This document shows, piece after piece, positions 50,322-64,000 of a stretch of 64,000 nt of DNA (the stretch's first letter is position 1; each line of letters starts with the position of its first letter). Both the position numbers and the translations under genes were made by a program. The DNA is from Protoeuglena noctilucae (Eukaryota): the NCBI GenBank assembly GCA_958009085.1, contig OY253669.1, positions 806,001 through 870,000 of the forward strand, in the 5' to 3' direction. The notes below the pieces were generated by a model that saw only the letters and a list, made by a program, of their open reading frames with translations, had not been told where the DNA came from and did not search any database.

Positions 50322-53300
50322 ATGGTGCGCATCGGCATCGTCGGCATCAACGCGAATGCCAGGGGACAAGTGAGTGCGGATGGCGATCCCCCATCGGCAC
50401 TGGGCCCCTCGGGGCTGCGAGAAGACGCGACCGGAGTGGCTCGGCTCGGCTGCCGCGATGCAGGCCTGGCTTTTGAAACCGTCGGCGCTTTATGACTGGA
50501 CGGCATGCTCGCCTGTTGCTTCTTGACACCTTCAATTACCGGGACATGCCGCACCTGCGACTCGTCGCGGTCCGCCTTGCCACTGGGCCGCTACTCGTGA
50601 CCTAGCCTCCCCTGCCGCCCCGCCCGCGCAGGATGAGCACCGCAGGCAAAAGGAGACGTACGAGGCCCAAGAGGCGAGCCTCGTGGAGAGCATCTCCGCC
50701 GCCCTGCGCGACCGCCGCGAGTCCCCGGGCCAGGCCGCATCGCTGCTGGAGGCGTGTCTCAAGGACCCACTCATGGCCTCCGCGGCGTCCCTTCCGAGGC
50801 TCCGGGACGCCCAGTACGCGGCGCTGATCTGCCTCGGCGATATCAGGCGAGCGAACCCTGCGTAAAGACCTTCCAAGGATGCGCCTGGTGGGGTCCCCTG
50901 TTCCCGTGCTCCCCTTTCGCCAGCCCAGCAGACTGGCTGGCAAGTCGCCGTCGCGTTGCCCGCGCAGGCTTGAGGAGGGCGCGGCCGCGGACGCCCTGCG
51001 GTGCTACGCGCGTGCGCTGGATTTGGACGGCAGCAGCCTGTCTCTGTGGCGCAAGAGCACCATGGCGGCCCTCCACAGCGCCAATCTGCCCTTCGCCCGC
51101 GCGGCAGCGGACGGCGCGCTGCGCCTGGGCAGGTCTCATCTCCGCACCCTCGAGTTCGTGGCGGGTGAGGGGCGGGGTATGTAGGAGCGGCACCGCAACT
51201 GTCATCGCCACCAGCCAGGGCGTGTCGGCCTGCTGTCCGCTGACAAGCCGCCCGCGTCTCATCCCGTTACTGCAGAAGTCCTGCTGAGTCTCGGGGACCT
51301 CGCCGGCTGCGCGGCAGTGTGCAGGGACGTGCTGGCCATCGCACCGCACCACGCCCGCGCGTCGTCCCTCCACGCCCGCCTAGCCGGGTGGTTCGCGGTG
51401 CGTCGGATGGCCCCGCGCATTACCTCATGCAGCGCGGCGCTCCCAATCCAGGCCACATGACCCCACACCCCATGCTGTGCTGCAGGCGTCGACCGGCCCG
51501 CCCCCTCCCGTCCCTCGGGCGCGCCTGCCTGGCATGGACGCCTCAGCCGCGCTCAAGGCCGGCCTCTCGGCGCTGATGCCGCCGGCGGGCGAGGAGCTCC
51601 CGCCGGTGGTCGAGGTGGCCCCTGGGGACGACTCGTGGGCGGCGCTGCTGGCGGCTTTGGCGGAAGCCGTTGCGACGGCGCCCCCGGGGGCAGCCGTGCG
51701 CGTCGCCGTGGCCGGCCGCGCGCCGCTCCTCTTCTGCGCGTCGCGGGCCGTACACGCGCGCCTGTGCGAGGAGCACGCGCGGCTCCAGGCGGCGAGGCCA
51801 GCGGAGGCGACGGGCAATGCCGCAGCCGCTGCGGAGGAGCCAGAGCTCCCGACGATCGAGCGGGAGCGTCGGATTCGTATCGAGGAGAACCAGCGTAAGC
51901 TGAGGGAGCTGGGGCTGGCGAGCATGGCGAGGGCGCTGTTTCAGGCGGCGACGGAGGGGCGGTCGCGGCGCGCGAGGGGCGGCAGCGATGTCGAGAGCGG
52001 GAGCGAGGGTGGCGGCGCGGGCGAGGGTGAGGAGGATGGCGTGGGCAGAGACGGGGCGCAGGGCTTGGATGGGCCTTTGGGGCAGGGAGGTGCGGGGCCT
52101 GCGGGTGCGTCACCGGTTGGTAGCGGGCGTGAGGAAGGGGCGGGAGCGGACCGGGACGGTAAGGCGGAGGAGCGCGGGAGGGTGGCTAGCGGGGCTGAGG
52201 TGGGGTCGGCGGATGGGGAGCGGGAGAGACCGGAGCGCCGGGGCTCGGGTTCCGCGGTGGTTGAGGGGTCGGGTGCCCAGCGAGGGGCGGGTGAGGGCGT
52301 GGATGTGGAGATGAGCGACAGGCGGTCCTCCGGGACTGCGAGCGAGTCTGGGGACGGTGATGGCGAGGACTCGGACGTGGTGGTCTTGGGACCGGCTGAG
52401 GGCGGTTGGAAGCGTGGGAAAGGCTCAGTGGAAGCGAGGGGTGTGGAGGAAGAGGGGGCCATTGAGGGTGGGCGCATGGAGGGGGCAGGGGCGGGGGAGG
52501 TGGAGAGCGAGGGGAGGGTCGGTGCCCATGGAGGCGGAGAGGGCAAGAGGGAGAGGGTGGACGAGGACATGGGAGGTGGGGAGGGTGACGGGGAGAGGGG
52601 CAGGGAGGGCGAGGACATGGGAGATGGGGAGGAAGGGGGTGTGGAGAATGATGCGGGCGGGGAGGGGGCAAGGGAAGGTGCGGGAGAGGACGCGGGTGCG
52701 GATGAGGATGCGACGGCCCAGGCTGCCAAGGCCGCCCCAAAGCGGAGGCGACGAAAGCGGGGGCAGGTGGAGGCGGCGGGCGGGGATGGGGCGGCGGTGG
52801 TGCTGCGGCGGTCCGGGCGAATGGCGGGCAAGTGCGACTACCGGGCGCTGCACGACCCCGGGGCTGCGAAGGCCGCTGCGAGGGGCCGGGAGGATCAGGA
52901 GGGTGCGTGGGGAGTGGCGGGGCTCGGCGCACAGGTGGGTGCGGGCGACGCGGAGGCGGGCGGGGCGCGGAGGCGAGGGGAGGAGGAGGAGGGCGTGCCG
53001 GCGGGACGGTTCGTGTCGGCAAGGATGGCAGCCACCCTGCTGGGAGAGGACGTGCTGGAGTGGTTGGTGGTGGGCGGGGAGAAGAAGAACGCGGGGGTGG
53101 CGGGGGGCGGGTCCGGGCGGCGGGCGGCCCAGCGGGGAGAGGGTGGCACAGCGGCCGTGGCTGGGCGGGGCGCGGCGGCAGTGACGGACGCGGAGTGGGC
53201 TGCGCTGGAGGCGCGGCAGGTGGGGGCGCCCGGCGCATTCGGGGCAACGCGCGCGGTGCTGGAGGTGGTGCTGGAGAGGGCCGAGGGGGCCGGGACGGGG

Positions 53301-55583
53301 CTGCATGGCTGCGGGGCTGCGGTGCTGCGGATGGTGGAGGCGACGGGGGCGAGGCCGCGAGGGTGGCGGGCGGCGCTGGCGATGGGCGAGGTGGCGCTGG
53401 ACCAGGCGCTGGCTTCGCGGGAGGCGCAGCGTGGGGCGAAGGGCGGGCGCAAGGGCGGGCGGGGTGGCGTGGACGCGGCAGCGGAGGCTCAGGAGCAGGC
53501 GCTGCTGGCGGAGGCGGGGCGATGGCTGGGGCGCGCGGCGGGGGCGATGGCGGAGCGGGCGGCGGGGGGAGAGGGCTCGGAGGGGCTGCGGGGCACGTGG
53601 CCTCGCGTGCTGTGGGCGCTGGCCATGACGGCCCAGCAACGCGGGCGCTTCGAGGAGGCGGAGTCGCTCCTCGCGATGCTCCAGGCGCTGCCCGGGGACG
53701 ACGCCGCGGCTCCCGGCGCACGCCCCTGCGCTCTGTGCGCGGTGCTGCCGGCCCCCACCGCCACCGCCGTGCGTCAGGCGCAGCAGGATGTCCGCTTCCG
53801 AGGCGCTCTGGGAACCTTCCGGGCCCTGCAGTCCGCCCACCGGCACCGCGACCTGCTCACGGCCCTCCTGCCCCTCCTGCCTCTGTGCTTCCGGCCCCGC
53901 CACCCCACGGCCGAGACCGGGCCCAGCCCCGCTCCGGAGGCGAGAGAGGAGGACGTCGTTCTGCACGCGGGGTCCGTCAGCTACGTCCAGGCGCTAGCCG
54001 CGATGGCGGACGCGGTGGCGGCGCTGCAGGGGCAGACCCAGGGCGACGCTTCCGCCGACGGCGGCAACGGCGGCGCGGCGCTGGGCGGGGCGTGGCTGGC
54101 GCGCGCGGGCGTGGCGGTGCGCCTGACGCTGCTCCACGCGTGCCTCACTCCCCCGCCCGGGTGGCAGAACCCGCTGTCGCATCTGGGCCAGCCTGGCAGG
54201 AAGGGCCTCCTGCCTGACTACGCGCAGCAGCACCGGACGCTGATCGAGGTCTCCGCGACGGCCCTGGCCGAGGCCGCGGCCCGGGACGGCTTCGCGGCCA
54301 CCGCGCCGCAGGGCCCCGGGGCGGCCCACGAGCTGCGGGGGCTGCGGGCGCGGCTGGCGGAGGTGCTGTGCTGGATGGTGCACTGCGCGCGGCTGCAGGA
54401 GGAGAGGGACCGGGAACTGGTGGAGCGGGAGAGGGAGCGGGTGAAGGAGGTGGAGGAGGACGGGGCGGGGCAGGGGCAGGGGCAGGCCGGCGAAGACGAC
54501 GGGCGAGCGGCAGTGCGGGCGGCGGCACGGAGGCGCACGCAGGGGCACGTGGCCGCCCTGGCGGCCGGGGTGGTGGGTGTGGTGGGCATCGAGGCGGCCG
54601 CGCGGGACGGGGACCCCGGGGCAGCCGTGGCAGCGGCAGCGGCAGTGCTGGCGGAGTGTGCGGACGTTGTGGACCCCACCACTGCGGGGGGCCTGCTCCC
54701 CGCCGCGTGCCTGGCGCTGTGCTGCGAGGTGCTCGGGGCAGGCGGCGAGGCGCCGGGGGCTGCGAGGGCAGAGACCCCACAACGCGAGGGCGGGGGATCT
54801 GGCGATGAGGCGGGCGAGGCTGGGGTGCCAGAGGCCGGCCGTGGCCCCTCACGCGCGGCCCCGAGCTCGCACCGCGAGATGGCCGCCACGCTGGCGGCAC
54901 AAGTCGTGGACGCGGTGTTCGGTACGGCCCTGGCGGCGCGGGGCGGTGGTGGTGGGGCAAGCGGGAGTGGTGCTGCCGCGACGGAGGCGGAGGGGCAGGA
55001 GCTGGAGTGGGCGCCGGTGCCGCTGTCGCCGGCCCGCGCCGCGGTGCTGTGGGGGGTCGCCTGGCGCGCCTGGCGCGAGGGGGGTGGGCGCGGCTACCCA
55101 GCCGCCCCGCGCACCGTCGCAACGCTGGGCGACACAGAGTCCGTGCGCCTCGCAGTCGCCGCGCGACGGGGGTTGCCGGGGCTGCTGGCGACGCTGGCGG
55201 AGCGCATCGCCGGGGGCGGCGCCCCTGCCGACGCCGTGGCTGCCGCCGCAAACAGCGAAGCGGTCGCAGGTACCAGGGGAGCCATCGCGAGCCCGGCCGC
55301 TGCCTGGNNNNNNNNNNNNNNNNNNNNNNNNNNNNNNNNNNNNNNNNNNNNNNNNNNNNNNNNNNNNNNNNNNNNNNNNNNNNNNNNNNNNNNNNNNNNN
55401 NNNNNNNNNNNNNNNNNNNNNNNNNNNNNNNNNNNNNNNNNNNNNNNNNNNNNNNNNNNNNNNNNNNNNNNNNNNNNNNNNNNNNNNNNNNNNNNNNNNN
55501 NNNNNNNGGCTGTGGAGGATCTTCTGAGCATTTATAGGGCGGAGGTGGGTGACATGCGCATCGCGCATCGCTGCCGCGGCTGA
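50322..55583 (+). CDS. CABIN1: CABIN1/Hir3-like TPR protein (HIRA complex); interrupted by assembly gap, 3' end uncertain
   Basis: MVRIGIVGINA..|..KETYEAQEA; ALRCYARALDLDGSSLSLWRK..ARAAADGAL..|EVLLSLGDLAGCAAVCRDVLAIAPHHARA matches the CABIN1 N-terminal TPR pattern; long exon from ~51486 to the gap. Confidence 0.72.
55308..55507. other. Assembly gap (200 N)
   Basis: Run of N; the round length suggests a placeholder of unknown true size. Confidence 0.99.
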
Positions 55584-56132: not shown

Positions 56133-58275
56133 ATGGACGCCGACCGCGGCGCATCCACCGCAGTCGTGGCTCCCGTGACCGATGCTGTGACGCCGCAGCC
56201 TCCGACGCGGGCGGGCGGGAAGCGCCCGTCCTCCCGCTCGTCCGGGAGCGCCAAGGTGGGAGCCCGCCCGGCGCCGCCGAGGGGGCCAGCAGGCAGCGAG
56301 CGCCGCGGCAGTCCTCGATCTCGTGCGCTTGTTCCGTGCCCATGCGCCGCGCGCCGCGGGGCCCGCGCCGCGGCCGGGCGGGCGGGCTGGGACCCGCCCC
56401 AGCGCTGCGCTGCGGGCAGGCCCGGCGCGGGGCCGGCGCCGACTTCCCCTGCGGCTCGCCAGCGACTTTCGTACACTATATTGTTGATGCTGGCATTGGC
56501 CGATCGGCGAGCGGGGCGCTCTTCGCGCTGCGGGTGCCTCGGGCATCTGGCCGCGCAGTGCCCCATGCCTGGCGCTGCATGACGCCCGGCGCCGCGACCC
56601 CGCACGCAGCGCGCCAAGGTGATTTCGGGCAACAGCGACTCTCGTGGCGCGGCCGGGCAGGGTCCGAAGGCGCGCGCGGAGCAGAGGGCGCCAGAGGCGG
56701 GGGTAGCGCACAGCGGCGACCCGGCGGGGAGCGCCGACGCGCGCGTCGCCAGGGGCGGAGACGGGAAGGGCCATGACGCATCGGAGCCCTCGTCTCGCCC
56801 GGAGTCTAGGGTTAGGGTATCTGTCGAGGCGCCCGAGGCGGCGGGGGCGGGGGCGCCCCCTGGGTCTGTGGACGAGGCGTCCGCTCCTCACCGCACTCCG
56901 GGCGTGGAGGACGCGGCTGGAGTCGGTGCCGGCCGGGGCGCTGGGGAGCAGGCGGCGCCTGTGGGAGAGGGGGAGTCAGGGCGCGGCGTGAGGGACGCAG
57001 GGTCAGCTCGGGAGAACGGGGCTGCGGTGGGCGGGACGGGGCGCGCGGGGGACTCGGAGAGTCCCGTGGGGGAGTCTGGGCGGGAGGGGGGATCCTCGGG
57101 CGGGTGGTCCACGGAGCGGCCGGCGGAGGACCGTGTGTCAACCAAGCCCCGGCGCGACCGTGTGAAGAACAAGATATCGAACCGGGAGCTCGCGGCCATG
57201 TACGAGGACCTGCAGCGGATGGGGCGCGTGCCGGCGGAGAGCCGCAGGAAGACGCGGAGGGCGGACGGGGATGCGACGGCAGGGGCGTCCGGGGCGGGGG
57301 AGGCGGCGGCGAGCCTCCCGGAGCGGCCCTCGCAGCAGGGCCGGCGCGGGTCTGCGGCGGAGGCGCCGGCGCCGAAGATGAAGGACGCGCTGCCGGCGGA
57401 CCTGGAGGTGATGCGCAAGTCGATCCTGGCGTCGATGGAGGTCGAGGAGAAGGAGGGCGTGCGGCGGACGAGGCGGGCCGTGAGCACGCCCAGCCGGCTC
57501 ACCTACGGCTCGTCGGGGCAGGCGGAGCGCAAAGCGCAGTTCATGGCGAGGGTGCCCCAGGGCCCCAAGAGGCCCAAGGTGGGCGCCGAGCACCAGGCGC
57601 CGGAGGTGGCGTACACGTGCCCGGTGTCGGAGCGCCCGCCGCTGTCGGACGCCGAGCGGCGGTACGTGTCGCGGGTGGTCTACACGCCGCCCGACCCGGC
57701 GGCCGAGGCACCACCGGCGGCCCCGGCCCCCACGCCCTCGCGCCGCGGTGGGGTGGCGGACCGCCCGCCGATGCAGCTGGACGACCGCATGCGGCCCAAG
57801 CTGGAGAGCCGCGTGGTGGCGGCGACGGACAACGACCGGGCCCTGCACCGCAAGCTCGGCACCAGCCTGGCGGCGCACCTTGGGTTCAAGGGCCTGGGCT
57901 ACCAGGTCTGCCGGTCCTGGGCGGAGGACGAGATCGACAAGTTCCGGGCGGGTTACGACGAGTACTCGGACGATCTCCGCATGCTACGGAGGCACCACCT
58001 GTCAGGGAGGTCCCTGGTGAGGGACGCGAACGGCGTTGCACATGCCACGTGCGCGCGGCGCCGATCGCGCCGCTGCCCGGCGCCGGCACGCCCACCCTCT
58101 GCTTCCCATGGCGCCGCAGTCGGACGTGGTGGAGTTCTACTGGGCGGTGTGGCTCCCCGGGTACCACGCGCACGTGCGCAAGGTTCGCAACCTGCCCCGG
58201 GAGCAGCTGCGCAGCAACGTGGAGGTGGACGACGATTCGGAGATCGAAGAGTCGGAGGAGAAAGAGAAGGAGTGA
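56133..58275 (+). CDS. ELM2-like / SANT-domain chromatin protein with long disordered N-terminus
   Basis: PKVGAEHQA (ELM2-like start); SWAEDEIDKFRAGYDEYSDDLRMLRRHHLSGRSL|SDVVEFYW SANT-like helices. Confidence 0.68.
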
Positions 58276-58453
58276 CGGGGTTGGTCTGCGGGGGTGCAGC
58301 CATGGTCGGCGACCGGGCGTGCGGTGGCGTGGCCTTTCTGGGCAGGCGGAGTGCTGAGGGCGTGCCAGCCGGGCGTCGCTGTCTTTGCGCTGGTGGACGG
58401 TTGTTACGACGAGTGTGGGGTCTTTAGCGATTCACAGCCTGGGACTTGCCCTC

Positions 58454-59462
58454 TTATGACCTTGAAGCGGCTTTATGGGACATGCAAACATGTAATATCC
58501 CAAAGAGCACGGCCAGACCCACGATAACCTTAATAACACCGATAACGACGAGATATAGCGTATACACTAGCTGTGTCACAAAGGAAATCACATTGGTGAC
58601 CACCGCCACAGTGAAGCTGGCGGCAGCCAGGACCGCGTTAACGATGGCTTCGATAAAAAAGATTGCGCCGACGATGAGGAGGCTGGCGATGATACTTCCC
58701 TGCAACACAAGTACGAGCGCTGCCAACACACCACAAATGGTAGGGACGACGGTCGTGGGCTTGGCAGAGGTGGCGGAGGTGCTCATGGGCATTGCCGTCG
58801 TCGACGCAGGCGTGGTGGACGCAGGGGTGCTAGACGTGCTTGCAGGCGTGGCAGTCCTCGACGCAGGGGTGCTGGACGTGCTTGCAGGCTTGGGTGCCGT
58901 TGCCGCAGGCTTTGTCTCCGTCCTCGACGCAGGGTTGCTGGACGAGCTTGCAGGCTTGGGTGCCGTTGCCGCAGGCTTTGTCTCCGTCGTCGGCGCAGGG
59001 GTGCTGGACGTGCTTGCAGGCTTGGGTGCCGTTGCCGCAGGCTTTGTCTCCGTCGTCGACGCAGGGGTGCTGGACGTGCTTGCAGGCTTGGGTGCCGTTG
59101 CCGCAGGCTTTGTCTCCGTCGTCGACGCAGGGGTGCTGGACGTGCTTGCAGGCTTGGGTGCCGTTGCCGCAGGCTTTGTCTCCGTCGTCGACGCAGAGCT
59201 CGCTGACGGTTGCAGAGGCTGAGGGGGGCACAGGGCACACTCTCTCACGTCCATCCCACTGCTGGCATGCACATGCAGCCCCGCCATCTTCTGATGGGGC
59301 GCTGCCCTGCTGCCCCTAGCTCACCTTATCTTCTTTCAGGAGCGCGTTGCTGACCTCTCCAGCCGGGGACGGCCGCCCGACCTCGTTGGAGAGCACTTCG
59401 ACATCGTCGTCGTCCAGAATGAGCCGGTTGTCGTCCCATCCTCTCTTCCAGCTATCGCCCAT
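58454..59462 (-). CDS. Orphan membrane protein: MGDSWKRGWDDNR head, P/A/S/T/K repeat stalk, hydrophobic C-terminus (intron 59324-59219)
   Basis: Exon 1 ends KEDK|GTGAGC; acceptor CCCTCAG gives PLQPSASSASTTETKP...; C-terminal ~75 aa almost entirely hydrophobic (2-3 TM). Confidence 0.7.
58857..59196. repeat. Coding tandem repeat, 66-bp unit, 5 near-identical copies plus partial/degenerate flanks
   Basis: Unit GTCGACGCAGGGGTGCTGGACGTGCTTGCAGGCTTGGGTGCCGTTGCCGCAGGCTTTGTCTCCGTC; on the minus strand it encodes TETKPAATAPKPASTSSTPAST. Confidence 0.95.
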
Positions 59463-59952
59463 CGCTCTCCTTATGCATCTCTCGCTCCGAAGGAGGCTCT
59501 GCAACCGAGCGAGGCGGTCACGGCGATCGCAGCGCCCGTTGGCTGCAAAGAGCACGGTAGCGCGCTGGAGCAGGGTTGCGCTGCAAGGGGGAAGAACGCA
59601 AACGTGCCAGTCATATATGCATGAGAAGCAATGGATCAGTGCGCCCGCGCTGCCGAATGACGCGCCGGCGTCATCGGCGCGCTCACCGATGTGTGCATAG
59701 TGGTGTGAGCGATTCTCTGCCTCCAAGGTGCGCCCTTGATGCCTATCTTGCAGCCAGCGCAAGATCGAGTTGAATATGAAAGAACGCCGTCTCGCTTTTG
59801 CGTTGTCGTCGTCCCAGCATCTGGCACATCGTGTGGCATGTGCTGTCAGGGTCACCCCCATCAATCCCTCCAATGAGATTCCACAGCTAGTCTGAGTCAA
59901 AGCATGTGGCCGTCATAGCCAGCGCAGGAGCGCAGGAGATGACGCATGCCAC

Positions 59953-60397
59953 CTACTCATCCGCTTTCCGCTTCCTCCCCCGCTGATCTTTCCTCTTCGG
60001 CCGCTCTGCGTCCTCGTCCCCGGATATCACCTCTTCCGCATAGTTGAAATCGTTGTCCTCCTGTGTCGGGGACGCAGGGGATCCTATGTTGTTGTGCCCT
60101 CGGCCCAGCCGACATCCACTGCCCAGCTTGGCGACCCATCTCGCACCTGGATTTTGTTCTCCGCCATGTACTGCAGCAGCCACGCCATAGTCTCCCTCTT
60201 GCATCGCCCCAGGTTGCTCGAGATGGGCCCTGCGCGCCGAACGGCGAGCCATGGGGCTTGCTGGAGCGCCAGGAGGGTGACTGGAAGTCCTCAGCTGCTG
60301 ATTATGCAACAAAGTCACCATCGGGCTCCAATTCCACCCGGTAGACCTCCTTCCCGTGGAACGTGAAGGCCGCGGTGATGGTGCCCGGAGGCCCCAT
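59953..60397 (-). CDS. 89-aa protein, GON7-like layout (exons 60397-60319, 60229-60147, 60060-59953)
   Basis: Two GT-AG introns (89 and 86 nt) give MGPPGTITAAFTFHGKEVYRVELEPDGPISSNLGRCKRETMAWLLQYMAENKIQEDNDFNYAEEVISGDEDAERPKRKDQRGRKRKADE*. Confidence 0.65.
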
Positions 60398-60836
60398 CCC
60401 TGGAGAGCCGCCGAGCCCCCAGCTGCCACGCGTCGGGCAGTATGCAGTGCTGTGCGTCTTCTCTTCTTATCAGCGCTAGCAGCGGAGCTCTGTTCGCGTC
60501 GCAAATGCAGCTGCCCCGGCCAGCTCTGTTAAATGGGAGCGATAGGTCCTCTATGCCATGCACCCGCGACACAGCATTCGCGTATGGGCATCGTGTCCTC
60601 CTCGGGCGCCTCCTTGGGCACGCTGAGACGCTGAGCACGGGCTTGACTGGCAGCAGCTGGCGACAGCCAAGCTGTGCAGCCCGTCCTTTACCCAAAATGA
60701 GGCGGGCAATGGGAAGTGAGATGCGGTAGGGTGTCCTGGAGAGACGAGCGGGCTGCGCATCGGCCCACTGTGAGGCCTGCGAGGGGACTGCCACGCCCGC
60801 GCCCGGGCACGCTTTTCATTGTGCAGGGGACTCGTC

Positions 60837-62492
60837 ATGGCTTCGTCTGCGACTAACGTACACTCTGAGAAGGACTTGGGAATAGGCGATGGGTTCAGGT
60901 GCAACTGAGCTGCTGCGGACGACGCAATCCCGTCTCGGTTGCGCCAGCAAAGTCTTGCTCGTCTTTAGCATGGGCGTGCCCTCCAGCTTGCTGATCATGC
61001 GCTCGTGTCCCTGATATCCCAGGAAGACGGCGCATTTCACGTGGTGTGTGGGCGGGCTGCTGACATGGTGAGAGTTTTCAAAGTTTTTCCATGCTGCTCT
61101 CCAGAGCGCCGTTACCCGCATCCTTGCGAACAGACGCCATATGCCGTAACCGCAGTCTCATCACGTACGGCCTCCTCCACGAGAAGATCTTGAAGGAGCC
61201 GTACATGACTCCCGAAGGCATCTCGGAGCGTTTCCAGAGCTCCTTCTTCATCGTCTGCGCCAATCGCGCCATGGCCATGGTCGTCTCCATCATCGCCATT
61301 TTCGTAAGCCCCCTCAGACCGACCTAGCCGGGCGCAGGCGACCTCTGGCAGCGGGGAAGGGCGACTGCGATGTCGTCGTCCTCTGCAGGTTACTGAGGGC
61401 CCAGCAGGGATCGCACCGAAAGCCCCCGTGCACTACTTCGGAGCCTCCGCCCTGGTCTCCACGATATCGACGGTCTGCCAGCACGACGTGACCCGGCACA
61501 GCGCCCCATGCCAATGCCAGCCACCACCGCCTGGTGCAGCACGAGAGCTGTGCTCCTCCACCCCGCCATCGCAGGCGCTAAAATACCTGTCCTTCGCCGG
61601 CCAGACGATGGGCAAGTCCCTCAAGATCGTCGCTACCATGCTGGCGGTGACGGCCATCCTGGGGGTGCGATACACCCCCATTGAGTATCTGAGAGGTCTG
61701 GTCATCGGGGTCGCGTGCGTGGCGTTCCTGGCTCTCGGGGGCGGCGCCCGCTCCAAGGGCAGGGGCGCTGCGGGAGAGAGCAACCTGCTTGTGGGTGGCG
61801 CGTACATGGTCGGATACCTCTGCTTTGACGCCCTGGTGCCCACCGTGCAGAAGGCCGTCTTCCGCGATCGGAAGGTCTCCGCAGCGAACCAGAGGTGACG
61901 TGCGGTTTCTTTGTGCGCTCTGTCGCAGTGGCACAGCCAGGGGCCATGCAACCACACGCCGCCCCAGCACACCGCAACACCTTAGCCTCTCTCGCAGCCT
62001 CTACTTCAGTGCCTTCGCCCTGTTGATCTCCTCCCTCGGACTGTGGTACCAATCGGAATTGTCGTCGTCGCTGTCCTTCCTGCGACGCCACCCCACGGCT
62101 GCCGTGGCCATGGCGGGCTTCTCGTTGGTCTCTGCCGTCCAACAGCAGTTCGTCATGCTCACCGTCAAGCACTACGGGCCAGGTGCCGATGCTGGGCCGC
62201 AGCCGTTCTTTAGCAAGCCATTGCCGTGTGCCGATGCTGTTGGCCGGCAGCTCACGCGGGTGTGACTCACTCCCGTTCCGTCCCTGCAGTGGTCTTCTCC
62301 ATCGCCATGACCACGCGACAGATGCTGTCGATTATTCTCTCCTCCATCGTCTACAAGCACTACCTCACCACGCACCAGCGGCTGGCAGCGGCGGCGGTGT
62401 TTGCGGCCCTGTACTCGGAAGCATGGGGCAAGGCTGCCAAGGGAGGATCGAAGAAGAAGGATGGAGCTGCTGTTGACAAGAAGGATGCGTGA
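60837..62492 (+). CDS. UAA-family nucleotide-sugar / PAPS transporter (SLC35B2/UTr-like)
   Basis: CVGGLLTCLITYGLLHEKILKEPY..ERFQSSFFIVCANR; STVCQHD|ALKYLSFAGQTMGKSLKI; GYLCFDA; QQFVMLTVKHYGP|VVFSIAMTTRQMLSIILS. Confidence 0.87.
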
Positions 62493-62633
62493 CATGAGGT
62501 GTGATTGTGTCCTAGATACTGCTCTTACTAGCTGACTTAGAGATGAGCTGCATAGGAAGACTAGCGACAGGGAGGGCACGGTGGGCTCAGCAGACCCCTG
62601 CTAGGGCATAAAGTACAGTTCAATCGCAGGGGC

Positions 62634-63551
62634 TCACGATTGCCAGTAAGCTTCCTCAGCCTCCCAGCAGCACTTGCAGGGGCACAGACACTTCAGGATT
62701 GCGGTGGCACGGCGGACACGGTCAGCTTTGCGGCGTTCGGGATCATCGACAAAAGGGTTGTTGGAACCAAACGCAGGCTGCCAAACCATCTTCTCCCTTC
62801 GTGGAGCTGGAGCAGCAGCTTTGGCAGGCCCGGCGGACGTCGGAGGCGCTGGCTTGGATGACGTCGGCACTGGCTTGGCCGAGGTCGACGGCGTCGGCGC
62901 TGGCCCGGTGGAGGGCAGCGCATATCTGGCCAAGGGCGGCGCAGAAGGCTGCGGTGGCTTGGGAGACGGCCTGGCAGGGGTTGGCGGCGCGACAGACTTG
63001 GCTGGGGTTGGGGATGGCGCCGGTTTGACAGGGGTCGGGGTTGCCACAGACTTGACTGGGGTTGGCGATTGGCCTGGCCTGGCAGGGGATGGGGATGGGC
63101 CTGGTCTCGCAGAGGGTGGTGGCGCCACTGGCTTGGCTGGGGATGGGTTTGGCCTGGCAGGGGCTGGGGATGGGCCTGGCCTGGCAGGGGGTGGCGATGG
63201 GCCTGGTCTGGCAGGGGATGGTGAGCCCACTGGCTTGGATGAGATCCCTGGTCCTAAAGACGGCCTCTTCTTCCTCTTCTTCCTGGCCGAGGTTGACCGC
63301 GCCTGAGGGAGTGGCCAGCTCTCAGAATCGTCACAAGCCCACCCACACAGTCGGACTGCGCGACCCCCCCCCCGCGCCCATCGGCGTGTCACCTTGTCCC
63401 TGCCCGTCTGAGGCGCCTTGTCGACCTTCTGCGGCGGCGGCGACGGCCTGCGCTCGTTGGGTGGCTCGTACACCACGATCGCGAGCCGATTGTCGTCCTC
63501 GACGGGCACAAACCGGTTCTCGTCCCAAGCCGCTCTCCAGTCATCCCCCAT
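62634..63551 (-). CDS. Orphan protein: MGDDWRAAWDENR head, Pro/Ser-rich repeat stalk, C-terminal Cys cluster (intron 63392-63303)
   Basis: Exon 1 ends GRDK|GTGACA, acceptor CCCTCAG; PSPxPARPG/PTPxKxV repeats; ends NNPFVDD...ILKCLCPCKCCWEAEEAYWQS*. Confidence 0.72.
   Translation of the reverse strand: MGDDWRAAWDENRFVPVEDDNRLAIVVYEPPNERRPSPPPQKVDKAPQTGRDKVTRRWARGGGRAVRLCGWACDDSESWPLPQARSTSARKKRKKRPSLGPGISSKPVGSPSPARPGPSPPPARPGPSPAPARPNPSPAKPVAPPPSARPGPSPSPARPGQSPTPVKSVATPTPVKPAPSPTPAKSVAPPTPARPSPKPPQPSAPPLARYALPSTGPAPTPSTSAKPVPTSSKPAPPTSAGPAKAAAPAPRREKMVWQPAFGSNNPFVDDPERRKADRVRRATAILKCLCPCKCCWEAEEAYWQS
62960..63235. repeat. Degenerate coding minisatellite (~27-bp units) encoding PARPGPSPS/PTPVK repeats
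   Basis: Recurring GGCCTGGCAGGGG..GGGGATGGG blocks on the + strand. Confidence 0.7.
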
Positions 63552-64000
63552 CGTTGGACGATGGGCGGCGCTCCGAATGCCCTGTTATGAGAAACGCTTG
63601 GACGACGGCTGGCGGGCGCGCCGGTGGTGTTTCCGCTCTGCAGCCCCTCGCCATGGGGCAGAGAGCACGATGCGCTCGGGAGGCAGGAGGAGCGCTGCGG
63701 AGGGGTGCGCGGGGACGATGGTGCGTGGCAGATGCTAAAAGATCACGCAGGTGTTGAAAATTAAGATGAACTGGCTCAAGCTGGCTCACCGTACTCTAAA
63801 ACACTACGCTATGTCGCTGCGAGACTTGATGATCAGGTGCGCCCCTGAGACGCCTCCGCAGTCGTCACCAGGGCTGCTCCGTTATATGCAGCCGGGTTGC
63901 ACAGGCGGGGGTTCCGTCGCGGAGCTCTACAGACTGGCACTCAGTGACGCCGCAGGTCTCCCTTGTCATCGTCCCCCCCCCTCTGTGCAATTGGGCTAAC

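Follow-up and report, generated by a model that had tools for sequence, protein, structure and literature searches.

The window analysed here, a stretch of 64,000 nucleotides of contig OY253669.1 from the genome assembly GCA_958009085.1 of Protoeuglena noctilucae (positions 806,001 to 870,000), carries on its minus strand, at 59953-60397, a small gene of three exons whose 270 nt of coding sequence specify a protein of 89 aa and 10.2 kDa. The gene is real: it is spliced, transcribed and protein-coding, and its codon use is like that of the host. By analogy with the human and yeast proteins, we consider that it may encode a fifth KEOPS subunit of the GON7 type, a reading to which we give a probability of about 0.55, and we treat it as a candidate rather than file it as a member of the family. 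Its identity as GON7 is neither shown nor refuted by our data; the predicted layout of the protein and the spacing of its elements agree with those of human GON7.

The preliminary description of this DNA had proposed two GT-AG introns, the removal of which yields the 89-aa frame, and had pointed to RNA data as a check of both junctions. The sequence by itself is not decisive in this respect because 1640 open models with one or two introns share the same start and stop, and it is the RNA joints that fix the model. Among the 12 runs listed, four RNA runs of one marine metatranscriptome study contain 44–56% of the window's words. We compared with the window the RNA contigs of four runs (X1, X3, X9 and X12). 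X1 and X3, which represent samples S1 and S2 of that study, each have a contig whose joints leave out 89 and 86 bases precisely where the introns were predicted, and both junctions are thus supported in two of the four runs compared, that is, in two samples of one study. No contig of X9 or X12 lies on the window, which does not prove the absence of the transcript. The RNA evidence consists of contigs and therefore gives neither the expression level nor the true transcript ends. The features are as follows:

60398..60568, minus strand: 5' UTR, its extent being that of the RNA contigs of X1 and X3, which both end at 60568, and not a mapped start
60559, minus strand: the sole upstream ATG in the spliced contig, opening a frame of 2 codons (2 aa; ATG scan)
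60319..60397, minus strand: coding part of exon 1, residues 1-26 plus one base (RNA contigs)
60230..60318, minus strand: intron 1, 89 nt, GT-AG, phase 1, in the hairpin-helix linker; joint present in 2 of 4 runs
60147..60229, minus strand: exon 2, residues 27-54 (RNA contigs)
60061..60146, minus strand: intron 2, 86 nt, GT-AG, phase 0, just after the helix; joint present in 2 of 4 runs
59953..60060, minus strand: coding part of exon 3, residues 55-89 and the stop codon TAG (RNA contigs)
59759..59952, minus strand: 3' UTR, its extent being the reach of the X1 contig

No ATG-to-stop frame on either strand of the spliced contig (59759-60568) is longer than the 89-aa one. Judged by a codon score with five coding regions from this genome as the reference, the 89-aa frame fits best of all: it scores 0.18, the remaining sense frames -0.33 and -0.67, and the antisense frames no more than 0.09. 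The gene is present in the genome in a single copy. A 191-codon open frame on the minus strand (59956-60528) covers the entire gene, stopping within exon 3, and its pieces of 83, 122 and 183 aa are wrong-frame entries in the public protein collection. Exact look-up of five unspliced frames found two of them in the collection, both being wrong-frame genomic calls that end in exon 3, and none of the four collection members examined was the spliced form.

Head-to-head with the candidate lies a multi-exon gene of a UAA-family nucleotide-sugar transporter (60738-62535, plus strand; PF08449, E 1.5e-9 and 7.3e-8), the RNA contig of which starts at 60738, ~170 bases from where the candidate's contig stops. 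In record 3 of run X1 at 60738, 45 loose letters precede the transporter contig, and a 20-base part of them matches the genome once, at G000:C5:1514084; an assembly chimera is the most likely explanation. On the downstream side, the contig of a gene at 58454-59715 (minus strand) starts 44 bases from the candidate's contig end. An intron of 106 nt with GT-AG ends (59581-59686) is spliced out of this gene, apparently from its 5' leader, and a 66-bp repeat of 5.2 copies (58854-59196) encodes a Thr/Pro/Ala/Ser-rich stalk in front of a hydrophobic end; the product looks like a mucin-like membrane protein, and Pfam gave no match to it. Further off, the window contains two long GC-rich frames on the plus strand, one (51384-55583) having a weak TPR match (E 0.003) and a gap of 200 N and the other (56583-58427) matching nothing in Pfam, as well as a Pro-rich frame with 27-bp repeats (62634-63584, minus strand) that resembles cell-wall glycoproteins and is likewise unmatched in Pfam.

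The anatomy of the protein was modelled with AlphaFold2 in single-sequence mode, the two exon peptides being folded separately without an alignment and not as one chain. The exon-1 peptide is predicted to form a beta-hairpin (strands 7-13 and 16-23; mean pLDDT 80.8), which bears out the two-strand pattern suggested in the preliminary description, and the exon-2 peptide to form one helix of 23 residues (28-50; mean pLDDT 90.8). The single helix announced at that stage thus stands as a prediction, but its amphipathicity does not: the hydrophobic moment is the same as the mean of shuffled sequences and is reached by 13–98% of shuffles across 20 settings, and residues 40-49 are hydrophobic on all sides. 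We have accordingly dropped amphipathicity as an argument for GON7; a helix buried on two sides, by its own hairpin and by a partner helix, would not need to be amphipathic, and this lends the GON7 reading no support. The acidic-then-basic tail is as described, with nine D/E in residues 55-73 followed by nine K/R in 74-89. The last 35 residues hold 12 D/E, the C-terminal half is poor in hydrophobic residues, and this composition suggests a disordered tail, the basic patch of which might serve in nuclear localisation or in contacts with RNA. Both introns separate the predicted modules, i.e. the hairpin, the helix and the charged tail.

In human GON7 (C14orf142; PF15387; PDB 6GWJ with LAGE3 and OSGEP; ~100 aa), residues 1-20 form a hairpin and, after a gap at 21-24, residues 25-50 form a helix, which is followed by an acidic tail that is unfolded; the hairpin extends the LAGE3 sheet and the helix packs on the C-terminal helix of LAGE3 (PMC6722078). 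The algal protein would follow the same order (hairpin, single long helix, acidic tail), with its elements displaced by a nearly constant ~+4 residues, and its 89 aa fall slightly short of the ~100-120 aa usual for Gon7/GON7. The analogy applies equally to the layout of yeast Gon7 (PF08738; PDB 4WX8/4WXA with Pcc1) because its fold and binding mode are the same as those of human GON7, although the yeast protein is ~20 residues longer than the human one (PMC6722078) and single algal exons have no match to Pfam. Strand 1 also shows a likeness in residue pattern. Human and C. glabrata Gon7 share an N-terminal motif (PMC5314774), and its class pattern, hydrophobic-x-[AG]-x-[YF], occurs in the algal strand 1 at residue 7; this pattern, picked after the sequence had been seen, falls within the first 12 residues in 3.3% of 20000 shuffles. 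A longer N-terminal pattern was discarded, its last position not being part of the published motif. In contrast to human GON7, the algal protein gives no detectable sequence match, ends in a basic stretch and has Ala at the acidic (fourth) position of the motif. The D/E73 signature common to Gon7, C14 and Pcc2 (PMC9889334; Daugeron 2023) would correspond to Ala42 in what is probably the likeliest register, with Trp43-Leu44 placed on the aromatic-hydrophobic pair. Archaeal Pcc2, or Pcc1-like protein, is a fifth KEOPS subunit capping the Pcc1 dimer face (PMC9889334, PMC10989989), which is the role proposed here; it is a complete paralogue of Pcc1, having three strands and two helices, whereas the algal protein is unlike its own PCC1. 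For our purposes PMC10989989 and PMC9666668 provide the archaeal analogue and background only. A Pcc1/Pcc2 paralogue was rejected as the identity of the candidate: the PF09341 genome search led to one locus, elsewhere, and hhalign against the alga's own PCC1 gave a probability of 0.2%.

That locus is the PCC1 gene of the host, which has a genome of 26.3 Mb in 27 contigs (GC of the window 68%) with 21 exon matches to the chlorophyll a/b-binding family, the best of them resembling LHCII-type proteins. The PCC1 gene consists of four exons on the minus strand (L001:1350-2015, corresponding to G000:C22:243197-243859), its spliced product matches Pfam at E 1.7e-17, and the best solved relative is Arabidopsis PCC1 (E 5e-12). 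Together with the matches to the chlorophyll a/b-binding family, this makes a green alga the most straightforward reading of the host. The first intron of the PCC1 gene seems to start with GC; the second is in frame and free of stops, so that genomic gene callers read through it. The gene lies tail-to-tail with what we take to be a porphobilinogen synthase gene. The genome also encodes CGI121, a KAE1-type gene that stays below the cut-off exon by exon, and a likely BUD32, which appears as three collinear matches on contig C14 among 67 kinase matches. The presence of the KEOPS core lends weak support to the GON7 reading, such a core being expected in any eukaryote.

Searches for relatives were made with single-exon frames, i.e. 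with 26–30 true residues per query. The word search in ~5.8 billion proteins returned no candidate with three shared words for the exon-2 frame (lengths 37–119 aa), and for the exon-1 frame (lengths 71–2000 aa) none of 12 candidates reached E<=10. Among 1.84 billion representatives, phmmer matched the 30-aa exon-2 frame only to a 1603-aa repeat protein, which was rejected with per-repeat scores below 0 bits. Two metagenome contigs matching a degenerate DNA pattern of exon 2 were put down to chance, as they show no likeness beyond the pattern in a collection that may omit the records of this genome. Pfam and NCBIfam gave no match to the single exons except one in an off-frame region (E 0.27). 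PF08738 and PF15387 had no matches in the single exons or in the six-frame genome, where the controls gave no match either. In PDB sequences exon 2 found nothing and exon 1 one unrelated entry at E 0.46, and neither exon had a usable match in the ESM Atlas, which shows neither absence nor novelty. A fold search with the 31-aa hairpin yielded nothing at E<=0.001 (best Z 2.6), and GON7 was not among the matches listed; this says little about GON7 because a lone hairpin is too small. There is thus no sequence tie to Gon7/GON7, since neither a homologue nor a Pfam match was found in single-exon tests, which are weak. In published work, orthologues of GON7 escape sequence search, the yeast and human proteins being 17–19% identical (PMC6722078, PMC5314774).

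A protein with no relative in either of these collections might be a lineage-restricted orphan micro-protein without a conserved partner, its likeness to GON7 being due to chance. We regard this as improbable: queries of 30 residues cannot reach remote relatives, the codon use is host-like, and near kin appear to be thinly sampled, because the same word search with the algal PCC1, a conserved protein, gave only three matches among 299 candidates. Far less credible still is a spliced non-coding transcript with an untranslated 89-codon frame. The protein collection did not yield the spliced product, but both splices preserve one open frame, GC at codon positions 1, 2 and 3 is 0.58, 0.40 and 0.83, the contrast of 0.83 at the third position with 0.40 at the second speaking against a non-coding transcript, and none of 5000 synonymous reshuffles had as high a codon score; no Rfam family overlaps the gene.

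The alternative that deserves more attention, though we hold it unlikely, is that the protein serves another nuclear complex, for example a polymerase, chromatin or RNA-processing machinery, as a small subunit or adaptor; it would fold on its partner as GON7 does, by adding strands to a beta-sheet and packing its helix, the partner not being PCC1. A hairpin with a helix and a charged tail is a small and generic design, which speaks against GON7 and for such an adaptor, and the basic C-terminal patch with 9 K/R in 16 residues and the unmatched Gon7 signature positions would fit the latter. The KEOPS complexes of Arabidopsis and C. elegans function as four-subunit dimers in vitro. Against this stands the agreement of the size, order and spacing of the three elements with GON7 to within a few residues, and no other family was matched in the single-exon scans. 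The GON7 interpretation of the preliminary description retains the gene model, the hairpin-helix-acidic-tail layout and the spacing on its side and has the failure of single exons to find a homologue or family against it.

The At1g47820-type plant proteins seem to resemble the algal protein in the pattern of residues across the hairpin and the helix, which we use as a lead only; it is partly because of this apparent likeness that we set the odds of GON7 above even. Zheng 2024 states that no Arabidopsis GON7 orthologue was found by sequence and proposes At1g47820/Q9FZG2 as the plant GON7, an untested candidate picked from the 671 proteins pulled down with KEOPS (PMC11077089). That it is one of 671 proteins counts against the GON7 reading of the algal gene. 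At1g47820 has a mass of 10.67 kDa and contains two strands, antiparallel to each other, and a helix, being otherwise disordered (PMC11077089); it is thus close to the algal protein in mass (10.67 vs 10.2 kDa), in its two strands and helix and in belonging to the green lineage, and it differs in having the pull-down evidence, whereas the algal gene is known here from DNA and RNA alone. The idea of a plant GON7 is not first put forward here, because this proposal had already been published (PMC11077089). In the literature searched, most subscription papers being outside its scope, At1g47820/Q9FZG2 is named in no other paper, and a proven GON7 of a plant or an alga was not found. The earlier statement that a fifth KEOPS subunit had not been identified in plants or green algae accordingly holds for proven subunits and needs amending for the candidate in print. 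In the same source the four-subunit Arabidopsis KEOPS is an active PCC1-bridged dimer in vitro and the forced monomer is inactive (PMC11077089), and for this reason a fifth subunit may be unnecessary in KEOPS of the green lineage. That we see here a genuine orthologue of GON7 in an alga with chlorophyll a/b, belonging to one family with At1g47820, seems to us to fall a little short of an even chance.

If the GON7 reading is correct, the protein would be disordered alone and fold on PCC1, as human GON7 does on LAGE3 and yeast Gon7 on Pcc1. Its hairpin would extend the three-stranded PCC1 sheet to five strands, and the helix would pack antiparallel on the C-terminal helix of PCC1, occupying the face used in the PCC1 homodimer. 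The result would be a 1:1:1:1:1 KEOPS, stabilised for t6A37 synthesis on ANN-reading tRNAs, in which the acidic-basic tail would remain disordered and may aid nuclear import. Complementation of yeast gon7, proposed at the outset as a check, would not be decisive, as human GON7 does not itself complement it (PMC5314774).

A green-algal GON7 would be a known kind of protein in a new lineage and not a new mechanism. As a true orthologue of one family with At1g47820, it would mean that GON7 spans opisthokonts and green plants and that the five-subunit KEOPS dates to the last eukaryotic common ancestor; the solved PCC1-bridged eight-subunit Arabidopsis dimer would then reflect a subunit left out of the reconstitution and not the cellular form. 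With a green-algal member, a profile able to connect At1g47820 with GON7 could draw on a second and distant sequence, and one could test directly whether KEOPS in plant and algal cells is a monomer of five subunits or a dimer with four.
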